32,000 nucleotides of DNA. Source: an uncultured Candidatus Bathyarchaeia archaeon. Lineage in GTDB: Archaea > Thermoproteota > Bathyarchaeia > RBG-16-48-13 > CAYPFQ01. Every line of letters begins with the position of its first letter. Within the stretch, counting starts at the first letter, position 1. The stretch spans positions 3,824 through 35,823 of the forward strand of contig CAYYPV010000068.1 in NCBI GenBank assembly GCA_964473665.1. The letters run 5' to 3'. A model generated the notes under the pieces. The model saw only the letters and a list, made by a program, of their open reading frames with translations. It did no database searches and was not told where the DNA came from. The position numbers were made by a program, and so were the translations under genes. Positions 1 through 24,127 of the stretch are shown here, piece after piece.

Positions 1-936
1 AACCTAACATTCATTGACCCACGCGGTCGATTTTACAGGTTTGAGAGGGCCACAAATAAAATGCCTATTGCTCCAAAAGAAACACTGCCGCATCCGTACG
101 GTGTAGATGTTGAGACAATACAAAGGCTGGTCGCAATTACGGAGTCGAGAACTATGCTTCAATTTATGATTACGCATTTCCACCGGGTAGGAAGAACAAC
201 AGCTAAAAAGTTCTTGGATTTCGCAGGAGTCCCTCCGGATAGAAATCCGCATAAGTTAAAGCAGGAAGATATCGTGAAGCTTGTTCACGCCATGAAGAAT
301 TTCGACTCCTTCATGCCGCCTGACGCTAGCTGTTTATCCCCACTTGGAGAAGATCTGATGAAAACTGGGGTCCAGAAAGAACTTAATCCAGAATTCATTA
401 CAATTGACATACGTAGACCGTCAGCTTACTCAGGTTTTCCATTTATTGTCGAGACAGCTATTGCCTACGGTGGCAATGTACCCAAAACAGACGACATTCT
501 TCTGTACAGGTTCGCGAATCGAATTCCATTGTTATATGACGAAGCAAGCGATGTTTCATGGAAAGTGGTACACACAGAGATTAATTGGAAAAATTACAAA
601 ATCAATTTTGATAAGCCTATGGCTGTTTTAGTTCATCTCTGTTCTACAAAGATTCCATACAAAACTGTCGGTAAAGAATACATAGCGGATAGACCTGAAG
701 TCGAAAGGGAAATTCTTAATGGTCTCCGCGAAGCTGGAAGGCAACTCGGGACTTATCTTTCCAGAAGAGAAAGTGCTGAACACGATAAAAGAAGACTAGA
801 TGTATTCTCAAAATACTTACCTAAAATTGCCCGCTTTACAAAGGACTTGGCAGGTAAAGATAAAGAGCTGGATGTAGAGCGATTATTGAGCGGCGTAGAG
901 GTTGAAAAATCAGTTTCAACTCAACTTGCTGAGTAA
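1..936 (+). CDS. top6B: DNA topoisomerase VI subunit B, C-terminal part (the 5' end lies upstream of the window)
   Basis: Frame 1 is open from base 1 (NLTFIDPRGRFYRFERATNK precedes the tracked Met at 61) and ends at TAA 934-936. The translation has Top6B-type H2TH/transducer motifs: RVGRTTAKKFLDFAGV, FPFIVETAIAYGG, LYRFANRIPLLYD, STKIPYKTVGKEYIA. Confidence 0.9.
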   Translation, partial: NLTFIDPRGRFYRFERATNKMPIAPKETLPHPYGVDVETIQRLVAITESRTMLQFMITHFHRVGRTTAKKFLDFAGVPPDRNPHKLKQEDIVKLVHAMKNFDSFMPPDASCLSPLGEDLMKTGVQKELNPEFITIDIRRPSAYSGFPFIVETAIAYGGNVPKTDDILLYRFANRIPLLYDEASDVSWKVVHTEINWKNYKINFDKPMAVLVHLCSTKIPYKTVGKEYIADRPEVEREILNGLREAGRQLGTYLSRRESAEHDKRRLDVFSKYLPKIARFTKDLAGKDKELDVERLLSGVEVEKSVSTQLAE

Positions 937-5054: not shown

Positions 5055-6152
5055 TTGAAGAAGAAACTTAGAAAAAGCACTGTCAAAACAAGAAAACTTC
5101 AAGTGGCAAAAAACCTTCAGGAATTTGGAACCGATTTATATGATCAGATGGAAAAAGGAGAGTTTCCATGGGTAAGAATGCCCAGCCGCTCTATTAATAA
5201 CATATGCTACGATCCTGGAACACGCCAATACGTTTTAGGCGATAGGTCTGTCATGAGGAGCGCTAGAAACATACGGCACATACGTCCACTTACCCAACTA
5301 ACTTGGATTGCGGATTTTGCATATCACTTAACGAGACAGAAAAAAACAAGCACTCTTCGAGACGTTTTCTACAATGCTCAAGCATACGACATGTCATTCA
5401 CAGATCAGCCGGAATCAGATGACATAATTACGGATCTAGAAACTATACTCGGATACGCACGCGAAGACTTCAGCATTTTCCCAGAAGAAAGAAGCGCAAT
5501 ATTCGGAAATTTGACAATAAGCTACACAGTACCAGGATACGAAGGAAAGAAACTTAATTTAACTTCACACCCTGACGGCGTCATGATAGGTCCAGCGCTA
5601 ACAAGCTCTGAACTTCTTGACACAGACGCCGAAATGGTAATTGCAATAGAAAAAGGAGCAATGTTCACACGATTTATCGAAGAAAAAGCCCATAAGAAGT
5701 TTAAAGCACTGTTAATACATACCGCAGGTCAAGCTCCAAGAGCGACTAGACAATTTTTACGCAGAATAAACAGTGAACTTGGTTTACCAGTTTACATATT
5801 CACAGACGGCGATCCATGGGGAATGCATATTGCCATGGTAATCATTTCAGGATCTGCGAACGCAGCACACCTTAGAGAACTTACCACACCAGACGCGAAA
5901 TGGTCAGGGGTTTGGGCTTCGGACATTGTGAATTACAAGCTTCCAAGCGAAAAACTAAATGACATGGATATTAGGCGACTGTACGAACTTCAAAGAGATC
6001 CTAGATATGAAGGAAAGCTCTGGAAGCAGGAAATAGACACGTTCTTCAAGACTAAAAAGAAGGCTGAACAAGAGGCTTTTAGCCGATACGGCCTAACCTA
6101 CATCGTCGACAAATACCTACCAGCTAAACTAGATGAAATGAAGTCATATTGA
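5055..6152 (+). CDS. top6A: DNA topoisomerase VI subunit A (Spo11 family)
   Basis: STLRDVFYNAQ gives the catalytic Tyr context, and IFTDGDPWGMHI is the Toprim DxD motif. The length of 365 aa fits. The start is TTG 5055. Confidence 0.92.
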   Translation: MKKKLRKSTVKTRKLQVAKNLQEFGTDLYDQMEKGEFPWVRMPSRSINNICYDPGTRQYVLGDRSVMRSARNIRHIRPLTQLTWIADFAYHLTRQKKTSTLRDVFYNAQAYDMSFTDQPESDDIITDLETILGYAREDFSIFPEERSAIFGNLTISYTVPGYEGKKLNLTSHPDGVMIGPALTSSELLDTDAEMVIAIEKGAMFTRFIEEKAHKKFKALLIHTAGQAPRATRQFLRRINSELGLPVYIFTDGDPWGMHIAMVIISGSANAAHLRELTTPDAKWSGVWASDIVNYKLPSEKLNDMDIRRLYELQRDPRYEGKLWKQEIDTFFKTKKKAEQEAFSRYGLTYIVDKYLPAKLDEMKSY

Positions 6153-9248: not shown

Positions 9249-9340
9249 GGGCCCATAGCTCAGCTTGGTGGAGCGACAGGCTCATAAATCCAATATGTTG
9301 AGAAACCTGTTGGTCTGGGGTTCAAATCCCCATGGGCCCA
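9249..9340 (+). tRNA. tRNA with CAT anticodon and an 18-nt canonical (37/38) intron; Met elongator or Ile2 (agmatidine) type
   Basis: The acceptor is GGGCCCA/TGGGCCC and the anticodon stem is ACAGG/CCTGT. The loop is CTCATA[intron 9287-9304]A with anticodon 9283-9285. The T arm is TGGGG-TTCAAAT-CCCCA and the discriminator is A. The GGGCCC acceptor is Ile-like. Confidence 0.85.
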
Positions 9341-12376: not shown

Positions 12377-12486
12377 GCCGAGGTAGCTCAGCTTGGTTAG
12401 AGCGCCAGACACTAAAGAGCGAAACTCATAATCTGGAAAGGTTAAGGGCCCAGAAATCGCGAGTTCAAATCTCGCTCTCGGCACCA
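12377..12486 (+). tRNA. tRNA-Met (CAT), elongator type, with two insertions/introns and an encoded CCA
   Basis: The acceptor is GCCGAGG/TCTCGGC and the D arm is GCTC..GAGC. The anticodon stem is CCAGA/TCTGG, with a 15-nt insertion on the 5' side of the loop (about 12410/11-12424/25) before CTCATAA (anticodon 12427-12429). The variable region is 22 nt (12437-12458) where 5 nt are expected. The T arm is GCGAG-TTCAAAT-CTCGC, followed by A and CCA. Confidence 0.8.
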
Positions 12487-16869: not shown

Positions 16870-16985
16870 GCTGGGTTGGCTGAGTGGTTAGGCAGGCGGC
16901 TGCAGTTGGCGTTACGCCATTTGTTGATACCGCCTCTGCGCCGGTTCGAAAGGCGAGAAATCGTCCGAATATCCGGCACCCAGCT
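16870..16985 (+). tRNA. tRNA-Cys (GCA) with two introns (canonical 37/38 plus a T-loop intron)
   Basis: The acceptor GCTGGGT/ACCCAGC is perfect and the discriminator is T (U73, a Cys identity element). The anticodon arm is GGCGG-CTGCAG[23-nt intron 16906-16928]A-CCGCC (anticodon 16902-16904). The variable loop is TCTGC. The T stem is GCCGG/CCGGC, with loop TTCGA[21-nt insertion about 16950-16970]AT. Mature length is 72 nt. Confidence 0.8.
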
Positions 16986-17077: not shown

Positions 17078-18631
17078 TTAGACCTGAATGGGCTTTTGAC
17101 TTATAACCTGCTTCATTTTTGCCCAAGCTTCTCTTGCTGTTACTCCAGCCTTCCGTGGATAATCCTGAACAGACATTTCGGCTATGACAGGGAATGGTGT
17201 TGGAGATGCTGCCCCCCAGATTAGCGCCTCATGATCAGCTAAGCCTGGTAAATAGTCTCGCAGTCTTTCGCTTCCACACTCAGTATACTTCAATATGGAA
17301 TCTTGGTCGTTACCAGACATTAATCTGAAGCATACAACTGTGTTGCACTGTGATATTATAGACTTCATAACATAGGCTGGTCTCTGCGTTAAAACTATGA
17401 AGCCTATGTTGTATCCGCCAGCTTGACTTATCGCTTCGACTAGTTGTTTATCTAACCCTATTCTCTCAGGGCTTCCCACTTCTATATCAAGACCTCTCTC
17501 CGGTGCGTAATACTGCGCTTCTTCAACTACTAGAACCGCTGAAAAGTCGCCTTGGTCTCTTCTAGCCATTGCATGTGAAACTATGTTCTTTATTATGTGT
17601 TTTAACGTAACCTGCTGTTCTTCAACATCAGTATCGATTGAAAAATCTATAATAACAATCGGATTTGTTAATACTGCTGCTATAATGTCCAGTGTCACTA
17701 TTTTCTCATCAAGGAAAGATCCTCTCGTGGTAATTGCCCAACGAATTCTTTCTAGAACGCGGTTACGTTCACGGCTGATGGCGAATGAGGACAGTTCTTG
17801 AATTTTAGCCAGTAATGTTTCTCTTGTTAATTCACGACTTTCAACATTTAGAGTTTCAATTGCATCCGCAATCATTTTGCCAGTAGAGTTTCTAGTTTCA
17901 AATCCAAGTCTTCGTGCAACTATTTCCCCTGTGAGAACGTCAGCTTTAGGTAGAAATTGGCGGTAAGGAACTATAAGGGCCCCGCATTTTGTCAATGTAG
18001 CATACTCTCCTCTTCTATCGAAGATTACGAAGTGTGGCGGAGGATTAAGCTCCTTAGATTTAATAATTAAATTAAGAGCAAAGCTACTTTTACCCGATCT
18101 AGTCATTCCCGCAACAAATAAATGTCCTTTAGCTATCCCGTTTAAATCCAGAGATATAGGCGTATTTAAGCCTCTATGTTTTCCAATTGTAAGATAATGC
18201 GGTTCCATTGCAGATGAACAATTAATTTTGCGGTGTGAGGCCACAGTGAAAAAGTAATTTATCTCCTCTTCCTCAGGCTCAAAAACCGGGTCATATGTCC
18301 CAGGGGCGCATTCTAATCCATACCATTTACCATTCTCGCTGATATAACCAAGAATTTCAGCTAACGCTACATCATATTCAAGTTGCTTTCCATACTGTGC
18401 CGGTTCACCCTTCTTGCATGCTATTGGCCCTGCGCGCCCTCGGCACATCTCAGGGTTATACGGCGTTACACGGAATACCCGAATTAAAACTGGGGCAATA
18501 TGTTCCTTACGCGATTTCATCGGATGCCGAATAAAGTAGTACTTGTTAACATAAACTTTTTCAGTTTCTTTAACTACGAACGGGACAAAATTCTGCGAAC
18601 AACCTGAAAGAATGTAGCCTATTTCCCTCAT
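17078..18631 (-). CDS. herA: HerA-like (FtsK/HerA superfamily, DUF87-type) ATPase
   Basis: Residue numbers follow the tracked 528-aa ORF. It has an N-terminal HAS-barrel-like region, Walker A AGMTRSGKS (res 185-193), Walker B AVLVVEEAQ (res 376-384) and LTQRP (res 425-429). I prefer ATG 18631 (MREIGYILSG) because it forms an ATGA overlap with the upstream stop. The tracked TTG 18664 would add 11 aa. Confidence 0.85.
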   Translation of the reverse strand: MREIGYILSGCSQNFVPFVVKETEKVYVNKYYFIRHPMKSRKEHIAPVLIRVFRVTPYNPEMCRGRAGPIACKKGEPAQYGKQLEYDVALAEILGYISENGKWYGLECAPGTYDPVFEPEEEEINYFFTVASHRKINCSSAMEPHYLTIGKHRGLNTPISLDLNGIAKGHLFVAGMTRSGKSSFALNLIIKSKELNPPPHFVIFDRRGEYATLTKCGALIVPYRQFLPKADVLTGEIVARRLGFETRNSTGKMIADAIETLNVESRELTRETLLAKIQELSSFAISRERNRVLERIRWAITTRGSFLDEKIVTLDIIAAVLTNPIVIIDFSIDTDVEEQQVTLKHIIKNIVSHAMARRDQGDFSAVLVVEEAQYYAPERGLDIEVGSPERIGLDKQLVEAISQAGGYNIGFIVLTQRPAYVMKSIISQCNTVVCFRLMSGNDQDSILKYTECGSERLRDYLPGLADHEALIWGAASPTPFPVIAEMSVQDYPRKAGVTAREAWAKMKQVISQKPIQV

Positions 18632-19851
18632 CTTAAACCCTCTTCGCGACCCAATTCTTGCCAAGATTCACCTTCATGCAGTGACCACTGTTCTCCATAC
18701 TGAAGTATGAACAGGTCAAGGTCTGCTGGATCCAACTCTCCCTTCTTTACAAGATCTAACGCTTTTGTGTACAGCAACAACGCATGAATGTTTGAGGTTG
18801 GTTTTGTGATTTTCGTGTAGCGATCAGCTTCATGGACTGGATAAGGTATTCCTTCAGGATCGGCCATTGTAAGAAGGATTGACGCAATTTCCTCAATTTT
18901 ATCTAAACAGAAAAGAGGGACTTCAATTCTGTAAGGTGGTGTTTGGCCAGTTTTAATGTATGATGAATAAATTTCAGCGATCGATTCGTCAAACTCAAAT
19001 TTGTCGGCGAACTGCTGGTAAGTCTTTGTTACCATGTTCTTAATTTGGAATGGTTCAATGTACTCTCCAGTGTTCATTAATGAGTTGAGAATAATCGTGT
19101 CTCTCATAGGCGTCATATTACAGGTACTGTAGAAGTAATTCATCTGCGTCCTTTTAACGAAGCCTACTACACCCACTCCGCGTCGTTTACATGTTTCCAG
19201 CAAAGATAGAGCTGTAATTAAAGTGAAAATGAAGTCACCGCGGTACTCATCTGAACCACCAAATTTAATGTGAAGCCGCGGATTTAGAACAAGTCCGCCG
19301 TCAAAGAAAATGTAAGCTGGATTCCATTTTTCAACAGCTTTCTTAGCGACATGATATTCAAGCGCCATATGAAGAAGGCTCTCTCTTCTATCGGCATCTT
19401 TTTCAGAAGGCCATACGTCAGGTGCACCTGCAGCGCATAAAGGCTCTTCAGTTATTTTCCAATTGTCAACTAGAACAGCGACAGCACCATAAATTGGCAC
19501 AAAAGCGAATCTATAATTTGTTCCATTTCGGCCAGCATCAGCTCCAACAATCTTTCTTGAAGCAATATCAACATCTCGGCGTGCTGAATGGAGTTTTATT
19601 CGTCCATAAAGCTGCTCAACTATTTTTCTTCTATAAGCTGCATATTCCTTTAACTTCTCAAGAACACTGTCAGTTCCATTATCAATAAGGTCATGGTACA
19701 ATCCTGTGTAAATTGTCTCAGCAGTCTCACCAGCGAAAATCCGTGATATAAACTCAACGGGTAGCGGCTTAACAGCGTCCAAAGTAGGGAAACGAAAATC
19801 ACTTATTGTCGAGTTTGAAACATTTTCTATATGGGTGTGGTGGGGTATCAT
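18628..19851 (-). CDS. nurA: NurA-domain nuclease-like protein
   Basis: It shows a NurA-like motif series: IVGADAGRNG (D105), ALEYH (E165), IFFDGGLVLNP (D184), VGFVKRTQ (K233) and GIPYPVHEAD (H340/D343). A strong SD (GGAGGT) lies 7 nt before the ATG. The call is from motif pattern, not from a search. Confidence 0.7.
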   Translation of the reverse strand: MIPHHTHIENVSNSTISDFRFPTLDAVKPLPVEFISRIFAGETAETIYTGLYHDLIDNGTDSVLEKLKEYAAYRRKIVEQLYGRIKLHSARRDVDIASRKIVGADAGRNGTNYRFAFVPIYGAVAVLVDNWKITEEPLCAAGAPDVWPSEKDADRRESLLHMALEYHVAKKAVEKWNPAYIFFDGGLVLNPRLHIKFGGSDEYRGDFIFTLITALSLLETCKRRGVGVVGFVKRTQMNYFYSTCNMTPMRDTIILNSLMNTGEYIEPFQIKNMVTKTYQQFADKFEFDESIAEIYSSYIKTGQTPPYRIEVPLFCLDKIEEIASILLTMADPEGIPYPVHEADRYTKITKPTSNIHALLLYTKALDLVKKGELDPADLDLFILQYGEQWSLHEGESWQELGREEGLR

Positions 19852-19878
19852 ATACTGAACCTCCGCTCCAACGGTTTG

Positions 19879-19909
19879 TCACAAGAAGTCGCCAATCGGC
19901 TACTTGTGA
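19879..19909 (-). promoter_or_regulatory. imperfect 12-bp stem with 7-nt loop in the 100-nt spacer between paralog 4 and the NurA-like gene
   Basis: TCACAAGAAGTC-GCCAATC-GGCTACTTGTGA gives 10 Watson-Crick pairs, 1 GU pair and 1 mismatch. The perfect palindrome GCGTTAACGC lies at 19935-19944 in the same spacer. Confidence 0.45.
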
Positions 19910-19951
19910 TCCGCCGCACCCGCTTCAGACGGATGCGTTAACGCGGAATAA

Positions 19952-20392
19952 TCATGCTAATACGTACACATAGCCCTCCTCAGTTTTCCAGCGGCGCAGT
20001 TTATTTCTTCTGGTCAAACGTTCAAGGGTTTTTGCTACTGTGGCTATTGGATAATGAAGCGCATTTGCTTCAAGCACTGTTGCAGTATCACTTAATGTTC
20101 GTGGTTTCTCTTTGGCCCAATCTGAAGAGAAAAGCTGAGTGAGTGCATCGCTGCAGCTTTCAGTTGTTGAGATAGATGGATATGACGAGCCAGTAGCTAC
20201 TGGTTTTTCAGTTACATTAAGCGATTGTGAAGTTACGGATGTTGAGGGTTGCGTTGATACAAACGCTTTCGATACCTTATTCACTATTTCCGGTAGATCA
20301 TTAAGGGCTTGGAGAACTTCTTCACGTGTGCCGCTTAGTTCGATTTCATAGTTACCGATTTTAACTCGAAGTGAAAATGGCTGTATGCTCAT
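19952..20392 (-). CDS. paralog 4 of a four-member family: N-terminal module, S/T-rich linker, divergent C-terminal winged-helix-like region
   Basis: LRVKIGNYEIELSGTREEVLQALNDL matches the N-modules of the three upstream genes. Its ATG overlaps the stop of paralog 3 (ATGA). The C-terminal TVAKTLERLTRRNKLRRWKTEEGYVYVL is wHTH-like. Confidence 0.65.
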   Translation of the reverse strand: MSIQPFSLRVKIGNYEIELSGTREEVLQALNDLPEIVNKVSKAFVSTQPSTSVTSQSLNVTEKPVATGSSYPSISTTESCSDALTQLFSSDWAKEKPRTLSDTATVLEANALHYPIATVAKTLERLTRRNKLRRWKTEEGYVYVLA

Positions 20393-20901
20393 TTCTTTTC
20401 TCCTCCTTGAATATTTATACGAGGCAAAATCACATCGCAGACATTCTTTATCCCAAGATTTGTAATTCGGTATTCACCTTTTCCAATCCGTTCAATTAGT
20501 CCATCGTCGACCATCCAAGCTAACTGATTTATTACGGTCTTTACCGCCTTACCTGTGAATCTGGCAAGCTCATCAACCGTTAAGGAATTCTTCGCCAATT
20601 TGCCTATTTTTTCCCCAACATAGGATCCTACTAAACATAAACCCATCGCTTCATCAGCGGGCAATTCTAACCGTGAAGAGAGTAATGGCCCCTCGGGTGC
20701 TATCACCAAAATTCCATTTAGATTCTCAATTAACCTCGAAATGTCTGTTGTATATACTAATCGAGAAACAGCTTCAAACGTCGGAAACGCTTGATTTAAT
20801 AGCTTAACAATCTCTTTAAACACCTCATCAGCTGTCCCCTCTACATCCGCCTTTAATTCTCCAAATTCGACATGGACTCGAACCTTGGGTTGAACGCTCA
20901 A
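20389..20901 (-). CDS. paralog 3: N-terminal module, middle domain and C-terminal winged helix-turn-helix
   Basis: The N-module is VRVHVEFGELKADVEGTADEVFKEIVKLL, the middle domain is LNGILVIAPEGPL...ADEAMGLCLVGSYVG, and the wHTH is TVDELARFTGKAVKTVINQLAWMVDDGLIERIGKGEYRITNLG. The start is TTG with GAGAGTGAG upstream. Confidence 0.7.
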   Translation of the reverse strand: MSVQPKVRVHVEFGELKADVEGTADEVFKEIVKLLNQAFPTFEAVSRLVYTTDISRLIENLNGILVIAPEGPLLSSRLELPADEAMGLCLVGSYVGEKIGKLAKNSLTVDELARFTGKAVKTVINQLAWMVDDGLIERIGKGEYRITNLGIKNVCDVILPRINIQGGEKK

Positions 20902-20917
20902 ATTTACTCACTCTCAG

Positions 20918-21421
20918 TTAAGATTTTAACTTCGGAATGACGCCTTCTAAGAATAGTTTTATTCCTAATGTTGTAATTTGATACTCTCCTCGTCCCAGGC
21001 GCATAACCCAGCCTTCATCAGTTAATTCGCTCAGACGACCTGCTACAGCCCCCGGCTTTCCACCTATGAGAGATATAATTTCCGCAATAGAAAGTGACGG
21101 TCTATCCATCTTTTTGAGTTGATGCCCAACGTACGCTTTAACTAAATGCAAAATTATTGCGTCACGATCGGTCAGTCGTTCCCGCTGTATTACAATTACT
21201 AACCCTTCTGGAGTAACAGCGATAATTCCTTCTAACGCTCTCAGTAATTGTTCCAAATCTGCGGTTAGAGTTAAACGGGATATAATCTCATAGGCCGGGT
21301 AGACTTTACCAAGAAAGGCCAGAATGCCGGATGTTACTTCATTAATTGATCCCGAGAACTTTGCTTCAGAATCGCCGAATCGAATAGAAACCTCCAATCT
21401 CTTCTCCTCACTCAACCGCAT
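20918..21421 (-). CDS. paralog 2: N-terminal module, middle domain and C-terminal winged helix-turn-helix
   Basis: The N-module is LEVSIRFGDSEAKFSGSINEVTSGILAFL, the middle domain is LEGIIAVTPEGLV...DRDAIILHLVKAYVG, and the wHTH is SIAEIISLIGGKPGAVAGRLSELTDEGWVMRLGRGEYQITTLG. The start is ATG 21421, or the GTG 21424 that directly abuts the TAG of paralog 1. Confidence 0.7.
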   Translation of the reverse strand: MRLSEEKRLEVSIRFGDSEAKFSGSINEVTSGILAFLGKVYPAYEIISRLTLTADLEQLLRALEGIIAVTPEGLVIVIQRERLTDRDAIILHLVKAYVGHQLKKMDRPSLSIAEIISLIGGKPGAVAGRLSELTDEGWVMRLGRGEYQITTLGIKLFLEGVIPKLKS

Positions 21422-21424
21422 CAC

Positions 21425-21880
21425 CTAAACCTTAAGCCTAGTAATAATGTCTTCAACCCATTTTTTCCCATTTACAGATAAGCGATAGGCTTTTTCCTCC
21501 TTAACTATGAGACCTTCCAACCTCATTTCACTAAGACGAGCTCCGAAGCCCGGCGAATGTCTGCCGCCTAACTCTAGAATTCTACCCAACTCTTTCGGTT
21601 CAACTGGATTCGGATCATGGGCATATAAAAGTAAGCCTAGGGCTTCTTTATCACTAATGCTCTCCTTCGGGACAATTAATACAGCGCCTTCGCTAGAAAA
21701 ATCTACAATGCCGGATAACACAACTTTGGCGTCAGGAACCACTTCAGGGGCGATAATCATCTTATCTATTATGTTAAGCCAGTCGGGAACCGCCTGTAGA
21801 TGCTCAATTATCTCATCTAATGTGCTACCTTCAAGCTCAACTTCTCCAAACGGCCTCTTTATTACTACGCGAATTTTCAT
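21425..21880 (-). CDS. paralog 1: N-terminal module, middle domain and C-terminal winged helix-turn-helix
   Basis: The N-module is IRVVIKRPFGEVELEGSTLDEIIEHL, the middle domain is LSGIVDFSSEGAVLIV...DKEALGLLLYAH, and the wHTH is ELGRILELGGRHSPGFGARLSEMRLEGLIVKEEKAYRLSVNG. It is the first gene of the operon. Confidence 0.7.
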   Translation of the reverse strand: MKIRVVIKRPFGEVELEGSTLDEIIEHLQAVPDWLNIIDKMIIAPEVVPDAKVVLSGIVDFSSEGAVLIVPKESISDKEALGLLLYAHDPNPVEPKELGRILELGGRHSPGFGARLSEMRLEGLIVKEEKAYRLSVNGKKWVEDIITRLKV

Positions 21881-21881
21881 T

Positions 21882-21940
21882 TTGGAGCCCCTGCTATAAT
21901 AGCTCCAACTAATATAAAAAAGTAACTATTTTACGTAAAA
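21882..21940 (-). promoter_or_regulatory. putative promoter/operator of the six-gene operon
   Basis: All three elements read on the minus strand. A TATA-like TTTTTATATT (21911-21920) sits 31-40 nt upstream of the ATG. The perfect 12-bp palindrome TTTTACGTAAAA (21929-21940) lies just upstream of it. A 7-bp inverted repeat TTGGAGC/GCTCCAA (21882-21888 and 21902-21908) lies between the TATA and the ATG. Confidence 0.4.
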
Positions 21941-23664: not shown

Positions 23665-23795
23665 GTGGGGCTGGCCGGATTTGAACCGGCGCCCTTTGGG
23701 TATCACCGCTCCAGAACTTCATCATCCCTTACGGTCTGTAAGCCCTATTAATTGCGCTCTGGAGCCCAACGTCATGCCGTGCTAGACTACAGCCC
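23665..23795 (-). tRNA. tRNA-Trp (CCA) with a 57-nt intron at 37/38
   Basis: Reverse complement: GGGGCTG TA GTC..GAC G TTGGG-CTCCAG[intron 23757..23701]A-CCCAA AGGGC GCCGG-TTCAAAT-CCGGC CAGCCCC A. The anticodon is the complement of 23759-23761 and the discriminator is A. Confidence 0.88.
23701..23757 (-). ncRNA. tRNA-Trp intron with box C/D-like guide elements
   Basis: The intron reads AGCGCAATTAATAGGGCTTACAGACCGTAAGGGATGATGAAGTTCTGGAGCGGTGAT. It contains AUGAUGA (23718-23724), a 12-nt spacer whose UCUGGAGC pairs with G31-G37 of the same tRNA, and then GUGA (23702-23705). Confidence 0.45.
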
Positions 23796-23890
23796 CACGT
23801 AATTCAGAGAAAATTCAAAGTCAGAATATATAGATTTCCCGCGGAGGCTGTTAAGTAAAATTTAATTATCGGACTTATCTGTGTGTCTTT

Positions 23891-24017
23891 GGGGTTGCCG
23901 ATCATAGGGCCTTGGAAACACCCGATCCCGTTCCGAACTCGGAAGTTAAGCGGGGCTCCGTTTCCAGCTTTAGTATGATGCGAAAGCTCACGCGAACCTG
24001 GGAAAGTTGGCAACTCC
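23891..24017 (+). rRNA. rrf: 5S ribosomal RNA (stand-alone)
   Basis: The hallmark ACACCCGATCCCGTTCCGAACTCGGAAGTTAAGC is present. Terminal helix I pairs GGGGTTGCC with GGCAACTCC. The tracked minus-strand ORF 23804-24019 is an artefact over this gene. Confidence 0.9.
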
Positions 24018-24127
24018 ACTGATTATAATATTAGAGTTTTTAAAAGAAAATTCATCATTTTTAAGGGTTATATTTATAACTGGGAGCGCTCTTTTTTTAA
24101 TGAAACCTAATTAGAGATGTCGCATAA

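Follow-up and report, generated by a model that had tools for sequence, protein, structure and literature searches.

A winged-helix paralogue set linked to NurA–HerA gene pairs of divergent type in Bathyarchaeia

Introduction

How archaeal HerA–NurA is targeted to DNA, how it spares the DNA of its own cell, and whether it serves in repair, replication-fork rescue or defence form an open question on which the locus described here bears. The locus occupies positions 17,078 to 21,940 of a 32,000-nucleotide stretch from an uncultured Candidatus Bathyarchaeia archaeon (assembly GCA_964473665.1, contig CAYYPV010000068.1, positions 3,824 to 35,823 of the forward strand; the whole stretch is called the window below) and encodes four small winged-helix proteins, P1 to P4, followed by a NurA-family nuclease and a HerA-family ATPase. 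The control of archaeal HerA–NurA activity is unresolved, with SSB, PINA and Hjc known to modulate it, and a structural study of 2026 questions the end-resection model outright (PMC12977600).

No account of winged-helix paralogues linked to HerA–NurA came up in full-text literature searches, and Bathyarchaeia HerA–NurA appeared in them in a gene list only. The nuclease–motor module is known; what is new here is a lineage-wide family of accessory or regulatory proteins together with its cis elements. Across the Bathyarchaeia loci analyzed, the small-protein set stays with NurA–HerA despite pair types that are about 20% identical and despite permuted gene order. The explanation that we tentatively prefer is that the locus represents a vertically inherited chromosomal module of Bathyarchaeia, in which a dedicated paralogous winged-helix set is made with, and works with, its own NurA–HerA pair. 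An archaeal class carrying a co-translated DNA-binding set beside a NurA–HerA pair of lineage-varying type constitutes a natural experiment. For a lineage that is uncultured but globally abundant, the locus also adds a candidate cis-regulatory RNA and a bidirectional promoter architecture that is conserved.

Architecture of the six-gene operon

The six open reading frames (ORFs) of the locus all lie on the minus strand and run from 21880 to 17078, with coordinates that agree with the window sequence. P1 (21425–21880, 151 amino acids) is followed by P2 (20918–21424), which comprises 168 residues from a GTG at 21424 or 167 from an ATG at 21421; the public record (P0001, 167 residues, 100% identical) starts at the ATG. 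P3 (20389–20901, 170 residues) begins with TTG and P4 (19952–20392) encodes 146 residues. A 100-nucleotide spacer containing a two-hairpin element (19852–19951) then leads to the NurA gene (18628–19851, 407 residues, assigned below to type 1, clade A) and the HerA gene (17078–18631, 517 residues). The HerA start is the ATG inside an ATGA overlap at 18631, not the upstream TTG at 18664 listed by the ORF finder.

The P1 TAG immediately precedes the GTG ATG of P2, a 16-nucleotide gap (ctgagagtgagtaaat, 11 of 16 purines) separates P2 from P3, and ATGA overlaps join P3 to P4 and NurA to HerA. Additionally, a GGAGG/GGTGA-like ribosome-binding site lies 7–13 nucleotides 5′ of each of the six genes. 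Collectively, the six genes make up a single array read in one direction, with ribosome-binding sites and overlaps of stop and start codons. An earlier sequence-only reading of this DNA had described six head-to-tail minus-strand genes with these junctions, and reading the sequence confirms every one of them; its further statement that all six genes are translationally coupled holds at the junctions it listed and overlooks the structured 100-nucleotide spacer between P4 and NurA.

The two enzymes and their canonical relatives

The last two products had been identified as NurA-like and HerA-like, an assignment that profile searches uphold. NurA matches Pfam PF09376 at 71 bits (cutoff 21, E 1.4e-19) over positions 2–254 of the 254-position profile, and HerA matches PF01935 (DUF87/HerA central domain) at 50.9 bits (cutoff 23.2, E 2.8e-13), with a PADLOC match at 1.3e-30. 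The motifs quoted for both are all present in the translations: GADAG, ALEYH, FFDGG, FVKRT and YPVHEAD in NurA, and the Walker A motif GMTRSGKS, the Walker B motif VVEEAQ and LTQRP in HerA. Residues invariant among 25 NurA relatives include D105, E150, E157, D184-G185, K233-R234-T235, E341 and D343. D105, E150/E157, D184 and E341/D343 probably correspond to the published acidic catalytic residues of the RNase H-like core. The PDB sequence matches of HerA are all HerA proteins, including Sulfolobus HerA (4d2i).

Neither enzyme approaches a curated NCBIfam equivalog. NurA scores 11.6 bits against NurA_Sulf (NF041033, the double-strand-break repair equivalog, cutoff 400), while HerA scores 47.4 and 38.4 bits against the repair equivalogs NF040819 (cutoff 970) and NF040937 (cutoff 800), and 67.9 and 50.3 bits against the anti-phage equivalogs NF042943 (cutoff 800) and NF042944 (cutoff 850). 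On these scores, the enzymes are members of the NurA and HerA superfamilies that stand outside every curated equivalog.

The pair resembles the archaeal HerA–NurA resection complex of Sulfolobus, Pyrococcus and Thermococcus in that the NurA and HerA genes lie side by side on the chromosome with an overlapping stop/start and conserved motifs. The window and its closest relatives differ from the canonical herA-mre11-rad50-nurA operon in lacking mre11 and rad50, in the low repair-equivalog scores of both enzymes, and in the four winged-helix paralogues that precede the window pair, which canonical operons do not have. Specifically, no Mre11 or Rad50 (Metallophos, SMC) occurs among the annotated ORFs of the 32 kb window, as the sequence-only reading had noted, and none lies within 10 kb in the related loci L002 and L015. 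Some relatives are closer to the canonical layout, with Mre11 and Rad50 only 3–4 kb downstream of a small-protein-linked NurA2–HerA2 pair (L048, L178), and in L177 a separate canonical NurA3–HerA3–Mre11–Rad50 cluster is directly adjacent to the linked pair. Because L177 holds both, the small-protein-linked pair constitutes a paralogous system. The stand-alone HerA–NurA pairs of Deinococcus and Thermus likewise sit away from mre11-rad50 and have a proposed recombination role; those pairs are bacterial and horizontally acquired, and are without a winged-helix paralogue set.

Linkage of the small proteins to divergent NurA–HerA types

Loci were collected via the small proteins, via NurA in 185,579 species genomes and via the second NurA type, and were mapped with hidden Markov models. 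Analysis reveals three NurA/HerA types in Bathyarchaeia loci, or four groups when type 1 is split into clades A and B. In clade A of type 1, which includes the window, NurA proteins are 45–86% identical and the small proteins always adjoin; clade-B NurA is 36–42% identical to that of the window. Type 2, with a NurA2 of about 360 residues and a HerA2 of about 485, is also linked to the small proteins and is far commoner (at least 1,329 clusters, compared with 55 for type 1). Type 3, found in L177, is the one joined in a nurA-herA-mre11-rad50 cluster. Between types 1 and 2, HerA identity is about 20% and the NurA proteins cannot be aligned by BLAST. The NurA2 and NurA profiles match weakly (hhalign E 0.05), and NurA2 is accepted as NurA-like on two grounds only: some members pass the Pfam NurA model or carry the name NurA in PGAP annotation, and the DG(S/G)L and K-x-T motifs can be aligned.

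The window, with type-1A enzymes, and L050, L174 and L175, with type-2 enzymes, all show the exact order P1-P2-P3-P4-NurA-HerA. The closest relative, L002, has P1-P2-P4-NurA-HerA without P3, and L095 reads P1..P2-P3-NurA2-HerA2. In L007–L013 and L038, a permuted array P4d-P1-P2-P3, in which P4d denotes a separate P4-like subfamily, is transcribed away from NurA; in L178 a divergent P4d comes after P4-P1-P2, and P4d alone stands beside NurA in L014, L042 and L177. A NurA-like gene and HerA lie within 6 kb in 8 of the 9 loci reached via the small proteins. Co-occurrence of the set with NurA/HerA, which the sequence-only reading had left to a neighbourhood survey, is therefore borne out across lineages, gene orders and enzyme types. 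The four-fold set that it described is found in the window and in three further operons; it is not universal, since L002 carries P1-P2-P4 only and a P4-P1-P2 triad occurs elsewhere.

Another account of this linkage would be that the synteny was inherited with no functional link, the small proteins having an unrelated housekeeping job. The L005 triad lies apart from any NurA–HerA and clade-B NurA–HerA pairs lack small proteins, both as this account would predict, and unrelated genes separate P2-P3 from P4d-NurA2 in L001 and L052. Type-2 loci often lie beside GatD-GatE, and this GatD-GatE synteny indicates that the whole region is kept as a block in several lineages. The adjacency nevertheless outlasts inversion or permutation and is found with two nuclease/ATPase types that share only about 20% identity; in at least seven operons the genes are co-directional and overlapping and the structured spacer is conserved, and every linked locus has a P4-type gene directly beside NurA. 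We regard mere synteny as very unlikely on this evidence.

Several further features of the relatives were recorded. Directly 5′ of P1 in L002 (8070–8955, plus strand), and also in L003 and L004, lie two conserved ORFs of 79 and 211 residues with no assigned function, which are absent from the window. Divergent from the unlinked triad is a 434–449-residue protein without a Pfam match (L005 8419–9723 and L006 39–1388, both minus strand), which may be an alternative partner. Clade-B pairs have FKBP, UPF0179 and aCPSF1/FttA genes as neighbours, and a co-directional calcineurin-like metallophosphoesterase of 220 residues always follows 3′ of clade-B NurA–HerA (L016 3119–3793 and 18 other loci). This protein is about half the size of Mre11, with no Rad50 present, and is possibly a minimal Mre11-like partner. 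In L177 (9504–17071; CP070745.1, Bathyarchaeota), a divergent P4d and NurA2–HerA2 are followed directly by NurA3–HerA3–Mre11–Rad50. In assembly GCA_964513245.1, a clade-B pair (L018) occurs together with a type-2 pair linked to small proteins (L052), so that two NurA–HerA types coexist in this genome as well as in that of L177.

Structure and relationships of P1–P4

P1–P4 are 21–28% identical in pairwise comparisons. P1 aligns with the P2/P3 profile over its full length (hhalign probability 97%, E 3.5e-11), and the P4 profile aligns with the P2/P3 profile at a probability of 85% (E 6e-6), with the N-terminal hairpin and the winged helix both covered. By these alignments, the four proteins are true paralogues. 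The sequence-only reading had proposed that the four products are mutually related and end in a winged helix, and hhalign and the AlphaFold2 models agree with it on both points.

The proteins share a common design in which an acidic N-terminal β-hairpin/helix module is joined to a basic C-terminal winged helix. AlphaFold2 models of P2 and P4 were built with orthologue alignments. The P2 model (predicted local distance difference test, pLDDT, 88) consists of a β-hairpin, three helices, a second hairpin, the winged helix and a long C-terminal helix, whereas the P4 model (pLDDT 77) has a hairpin and a long helix, a disordered, Ser/Thr-rich linker (residues 47–68) and a winged helix at residues 80–145. 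The wings in both models follow an H-H-H-β-β order and match the DNA-binding domains of Fur, MarR and AspA with a Foldseek probability of 1.0.

Searches of Pfam, NCBIfam, PADLOC, Foldseek and the PDB place none of the four in a named family, as had been anticipated from the sequence. P3 alone exceeds a Pfam cutoff (HTH_5, 25.1 bits, cutoff 22), P2 and P4 fall under the Pfam winged-helix cutoffs, and P1 has no match in Pfam, NCBIfam or PADLOC. Foldseek and PDB profile searches return generic winged-helix matches, of the AspA/PadR type for P2 and of the Fur and BlaI types for P4, and zero matches to the N-terminal module of either protein. In the PADLOC scan, weak winged-helix similarities to AbiEi and Csa3 were observed. 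Assignment as an AbiEi antitoxin was rejected: the match covers the winged-helix part only, at 15.8–22.8 bits (cutoff 25), with no AbiEii gene and no C-terminal domain.

The orthologues are well conserved. P1 orthologues are 47–70% identical, P3 forms an old orthogroup distinct from P2 (found in L001, L007-type loci, L050, L174 and L175), and P4d keeps both domains. P4 is the most conserved paralogue (about 50% identity within the clade), with C80, W92, R98, N110 and R134 invariant and a YPSIS..SC motif. Cys80, at the start of the winged helix, is invariant in P4 and nearly invariant over P4 and P4d together. One-cysteine MarR/OhrR regulators are redox sensors, and the P4 cysteine might act likewise, which is offered as a lead.

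A profile search of 1.84 billion cluster representatives returned 637 relatives at E ≤ 1e-3 and 187 at E ≤ 1e-10, nearly all of them stand-alone proteins of 140–180 residues. The named sources are all metagenome-assembled genomes of Bathyarchaeia, Hecatellales or Nitrososphaerota, and the product names read "hypothetical" or carry a generic ArsR label only. The family that P1–P4 define, of about 640 clusters, is without annotation. Fusions are rare, and three metagenomic ones were found: in P0297, a Ser/Thr protein kinase is followed by two P2/P3-like modules, and in P0347 and P0400 a 190-residue N-terminal region with a PDG..ELK motif, which recalls PD-(D/E)xK nucleases, precedes a full P2-like module.

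Such proteins could be transcription factors and nothing more, acting on nurA-herA and perhaps other genes after a lineage-specific expansion, as homo- or heterodimers that possibly sense redox state or damage through the P4 cysteine. This is a real possibility, if on the unlikely side. It draws on the winged-helix fold with its MarR/ArsR/PadR/BlaI-like matches and on the near-invariance of Cys80, and the kinase fusion P0297 would fit signalling to a DNA-binding output. The C-terminal winged helix is indeed like that of PadR, MarR, ArsR and BlaI regulators and of AspA, the pNOB8 centromere-binding protein, and in P2 and P3 a further helix comes after it at the C terminus, in the manner of AspA/PadR (target-normalised TM-score 0.74, 87 aligned columns). 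Unlike those proteins, the small proteins possess an N-terminal module without counterpart, three of the four fall under Pfam cutoffs, and they form fixed sets of three to four paralogues in an operon with enzymes and without ParA/ParB partners. Paralogues in fixed order, overlapping and on the same transcript as their target enzymes, would be atypical for regulators, and the degree of orthologue conservation, close to that of HerA (around 50% within the clade), is unusual for local ones.

A structured spacer between P4 and NurA

The P4-to-NurA spacer folds into hairpin 1 at 19915–19937 and hairpin 2 at 19871–19914, the latter built as CGG-stem-CAAA bulge-CCG. An outer stem pairing 19943–19948 with 19861–19866 partly covers the NurA GGAGG site (19860–19864). 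The window fold has a minimum free energy of −38.9 kcal/mol (z −2.6), and equivalents in L002 (10442–10541), L015 (139–240), L050 (11461–11545) and L095 (5514–5591, minus strand) have z values from −2.0 to −5.0; the spacers of L174 and L175 show the same design. Hence the two-hairpin fold is present in all seven co-directional operons and with both NurA/HerA types. Hairpin 2 takes the general form CGG-variable stem-A-rich bulge-C[CU]G, and its stem sequences are wholly different between lineages yet remain paired, with G·U-compatible changes.

In the seven-operon alignment, 87% of cells are paired, compared with 77% in shuffles (0 of 500 shuffles reaching this value), and the covariation score is 0.36 against 0.19 (0 of 500); controls with slid partners pair at 29–50%. 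Moreover, in the window, L002 and L015, the bases just 3′ of the P4 stop pair with the NurA GGAGG region to form the outer stem. The spacer contains no TATA-like box and matches no Rfam family. A C/D-box small RNA was rejected, as the boxes are not kept in L002, and so was a kink-turn, which would call for tandem G·A pairs that the spacer lacks. A metagenome DNA scan with AAGCGGGTGCGGCGG, a short and GC-rich pattern, yielded one real locus among 120 (L095). From its covariation and recurrence, the spacer is a candidate new cis-regulatory RNA.

Promoter regions and the divergent P4d arrangement

Upstream of P1, a putative operon promoter spans 21911–21940 on the minus strand, with a palindrome, TTTTACGTAAAA, at 21929–21940 and an A/T-rich TATA-like box, TTTTTATATT, at 21911–21920. 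The box lies about 30–40 nucleotides 5′ of the P1 start codon, from which we infer an archaeal promoter, and TACGT(A) repeats recur 5′ of P1 in L002, L008 and L009. Between the box and the P1 ATG lies a 7 bp inverted repeat, TTGGAGC-N13-GCTCCAA (21882–21908, minus strand), which could be an operator or a hairpin of the 5′ untranslated region and is not kept in relatives. TTGGAGC was also considered as an operator common to the regions upstream of P1 and nurA (8 copies, 4.5 expected) and was discarded: the nurA copy falls in a conserved ribosome-binding-site stretch and is lost in L015.

Where P4d is divergent from NurA, the gap between them is short and contains TTGTTKATTG near the P4d start and GCRCAACA(ACA) abutting a TTTAWATA box about 40 nucleotides before NurA. 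In the L007 group, the gap holds a perfect 22 bp palindrome (10+10), TTGTTGATTGAACAATCAACAA. The divergent promoter sites map to 9865–9887 in L007, about 9842 in L008, about 4172 in L014, and the P4d-NurA2 gaps of L176–L178. Across 742 kb of loci, 17 of the 21 copies of CAATCAACA fall in the P4d-NurA gap, in four lineages. Its status as a clean operator shared with L001 is tempered, in that the type-2 string TTGTTGATTGAAC is the NurA2 coding start (MIEQ). What the divergent loci of types 1A and 2 do have in common is TTGTTKATTG close to the P4d start and GCRCAACA beside the TATA box. This promoter design and the spacer element are both common to the two enzyme types, which indicates that the small proteins and their regulation were retained beside differing nuclease/ATPase pairs. 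The sequences suggest a retained regulatory part beside a pair that either diverged extremely or was displaced in situ.

These promoters bear directly on the transcription-factor account. P4d is always divergent from nurA over a palindrome-bearing bidirectional promoter in which the CAATCAACA copies concentrate, much as autoregulators are arranged, and the P4-P1-P2 triad away from NurA–HerA (L005) also agrees with a purely regulatory function. The palindromes, however, accompany the P4d arrangement only, with none upstream of nurA in the window, and the covariation of the window spacer is typical of RNA and not of a protein-binding DNA site. Between this account and a dedicated set working with NurA–HerA, the fixed, overlap-coupled paralogues and their HerA-like conservation favour the latter, and the divergent P4d palindromes and the unlinked triad favour the former.

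Chromosomal setting and the question of defence

The window genes comprise Topo VI B and A, proline synthesis, PGK, RpiA, a cation-efflux protein, DUF1512, an M24 peptidase, Tyr/TrpRS, PheRS alpha and beta, 5S rRNA, several tRNAs, hemerythrin and DUF488. Immediately downstream of HerA are tRNA-Thr and tRNA-Pro, and hemerythrin, DUF488 and a 67-residue cytochrome b5-like ORF lie upstream of the operon. The sequence-only reading had correctly listed these upstream genes; its description of the setting as accessory is wrong, as the surrounding genes are housekeeping genes in conserved synteny. On one flank, gene order matches that of a 1.25 Mb bathyarchaeal contig bearing the same operon, and GC content is flat over the locus.

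The same reading had raised defence or plasmid/virus control as a role. Under such a scheme, winged-helix sensors of foreign DNA would unleash a HerA-driven NurA, as in SIR2-HerA and DUF4297-HerA. The window pair is like those systems in having a HerA-family hexameric ATPase paired with an adjacent effector enzyme and in partial matches to their HerA models and structures; among PADLOC/NCBIfam models, window HerA scores best against the "anti-phage HerA" models, far under their cutoffs. According to the 2026 study, even the canonical HerA–NurA of archaea may act in defence (PMC12977600). The weak AbiEi and Csa3 similarities, an MmeI-like restriction-modification gene about 8 kb away in L002 and integrases near L174 and L178 point the same way.

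The distribution of the module speaks otherwise. P4 was not found on IMG/VR viral contigs, nor P2 on PLSDB plasmids, nor the window NurA on phage records, and the families are broad within one lineage (at least 1,329 NurA2 clusters), not patchy. Here, unlike in SIR2-HerA and DUF4297-HerA, the effector is NurA, the host is archaeal, the context is housekeeping with flat GC, and extra winged-helix subunits are present. PADLOC gives no match for NurA, P1 or P4, and no SIR2, DUF4297, CARF or other effector partner was found. The neighbours in relatives are repair genes, including UvrD and AP endonuclease 2 near the operon in L050. The suggested role in defence or plasmid/virus control therefore finds no backing in this distribution, and we consider it highly improbable. 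Defence and mere synteny are both less likely than either a dedicated accessory set or plain transcription factors.

A proposed accessory role for the winged-helix set

If P1–P4 form a dedicated set working with NurA–HerA, the acidic N-terminal hairpin/helix modules would let them assemble into a hetero-oligomer, and the basic winged-helix domains would bind DNA and either restrain NurA–HerA or bring it to particular DNA ends or structures, much as the sequence-only reading had proposed. A P4-type protein may also be a local transcriptional autoregulator, most clearly where P4d is divergent over a palindrome-bearing promoter. In the window form, nurA-herA would have no promoter of its own and would be read from the small-protein transcript through the structured spacer. 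With the outer stem partly masking the nurA ribosome-binding site, NurA–HerA output would be tied to that of the small proteins and would probably lie below it. The role would most likely lie in repair or DNA-end processing on the chromosome, possibly in response to stress signals, and not in defence against viruses.

Several observations weigh against this explanation. The structural similarity of the small proteins is generic winged-helix, with nothing pointing to a nuclease cofactor, and no nuclease fold in P0347 and P0400 is supported by sequence search, so that a PD-(D/E)xK label for them describes a motif only. Winged-helix genes that lie divergent to an operon classically encode transcription factors and nothing more, a reading that the conserved palindromes fit. 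About 25 clade-B NurA–HerA loci have no small proteins within 10 kb, and the P4-P1-P2 triad of L005 and L006 has no NurA or HerA within 10 kb; together, these loci indicate that neither component strictly needs adjacency. Finally, the sampling of loci is modest and partly NurA-anchored.

A fuller picture, rather unlikely as a whole, would have P1–P4 form a collar that docks through its N-terminal modules on the paralogous NurA–HerA and picks DNA ends or structures. Surveillance and processing would then be independent of Mre11–Rad50, with P4d as autoregulator, a metering intercistronic RNA, possible kinase input and an exchangeable nuclease/ATPase cassette. Should the small proteins turn out to be specificity factors or subunits, HerA–NurA would gain its first dedicated accessory factors, and its substrate choice would become testable in vitro.

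Other features of the window

Outside the operon, a stand-alone 5S rRNA gene lies at 23894–24015 (plus strand; Rfam 84.7 bits) with no 16S or 23S rRNA nearby, and the ORF overlapping it at 23804–24019 (minus strand) is spurious. Rfam detects three tRNA genes missed by ARAGORN, at 9249–9340 (plus), 12377–12483 (plus) and 23666–23796 (minus), which at 92–131 nucleotides in length probably contain introns. The Topo VI B gene (61–936, plus strand, its C-terminal part at the window edge) and the Topo VI A gene (5055–6152, plus strand) are about 4 kb apart, with proline-biosynthesis genes between them. After tRNA-Thr and tRNA-Pro, a possible two-intron tRNA-Cys(GCA), also considered as a class II tRNA, spans 16870–16985 on the plus strand, with matching acceptor arms GCTGGGT/ACCCAGC; Rfam finds nothing in the unspliced DNA, and ARAGORN calls this tRNA only on in-silico spliced versions, of which many give the call.

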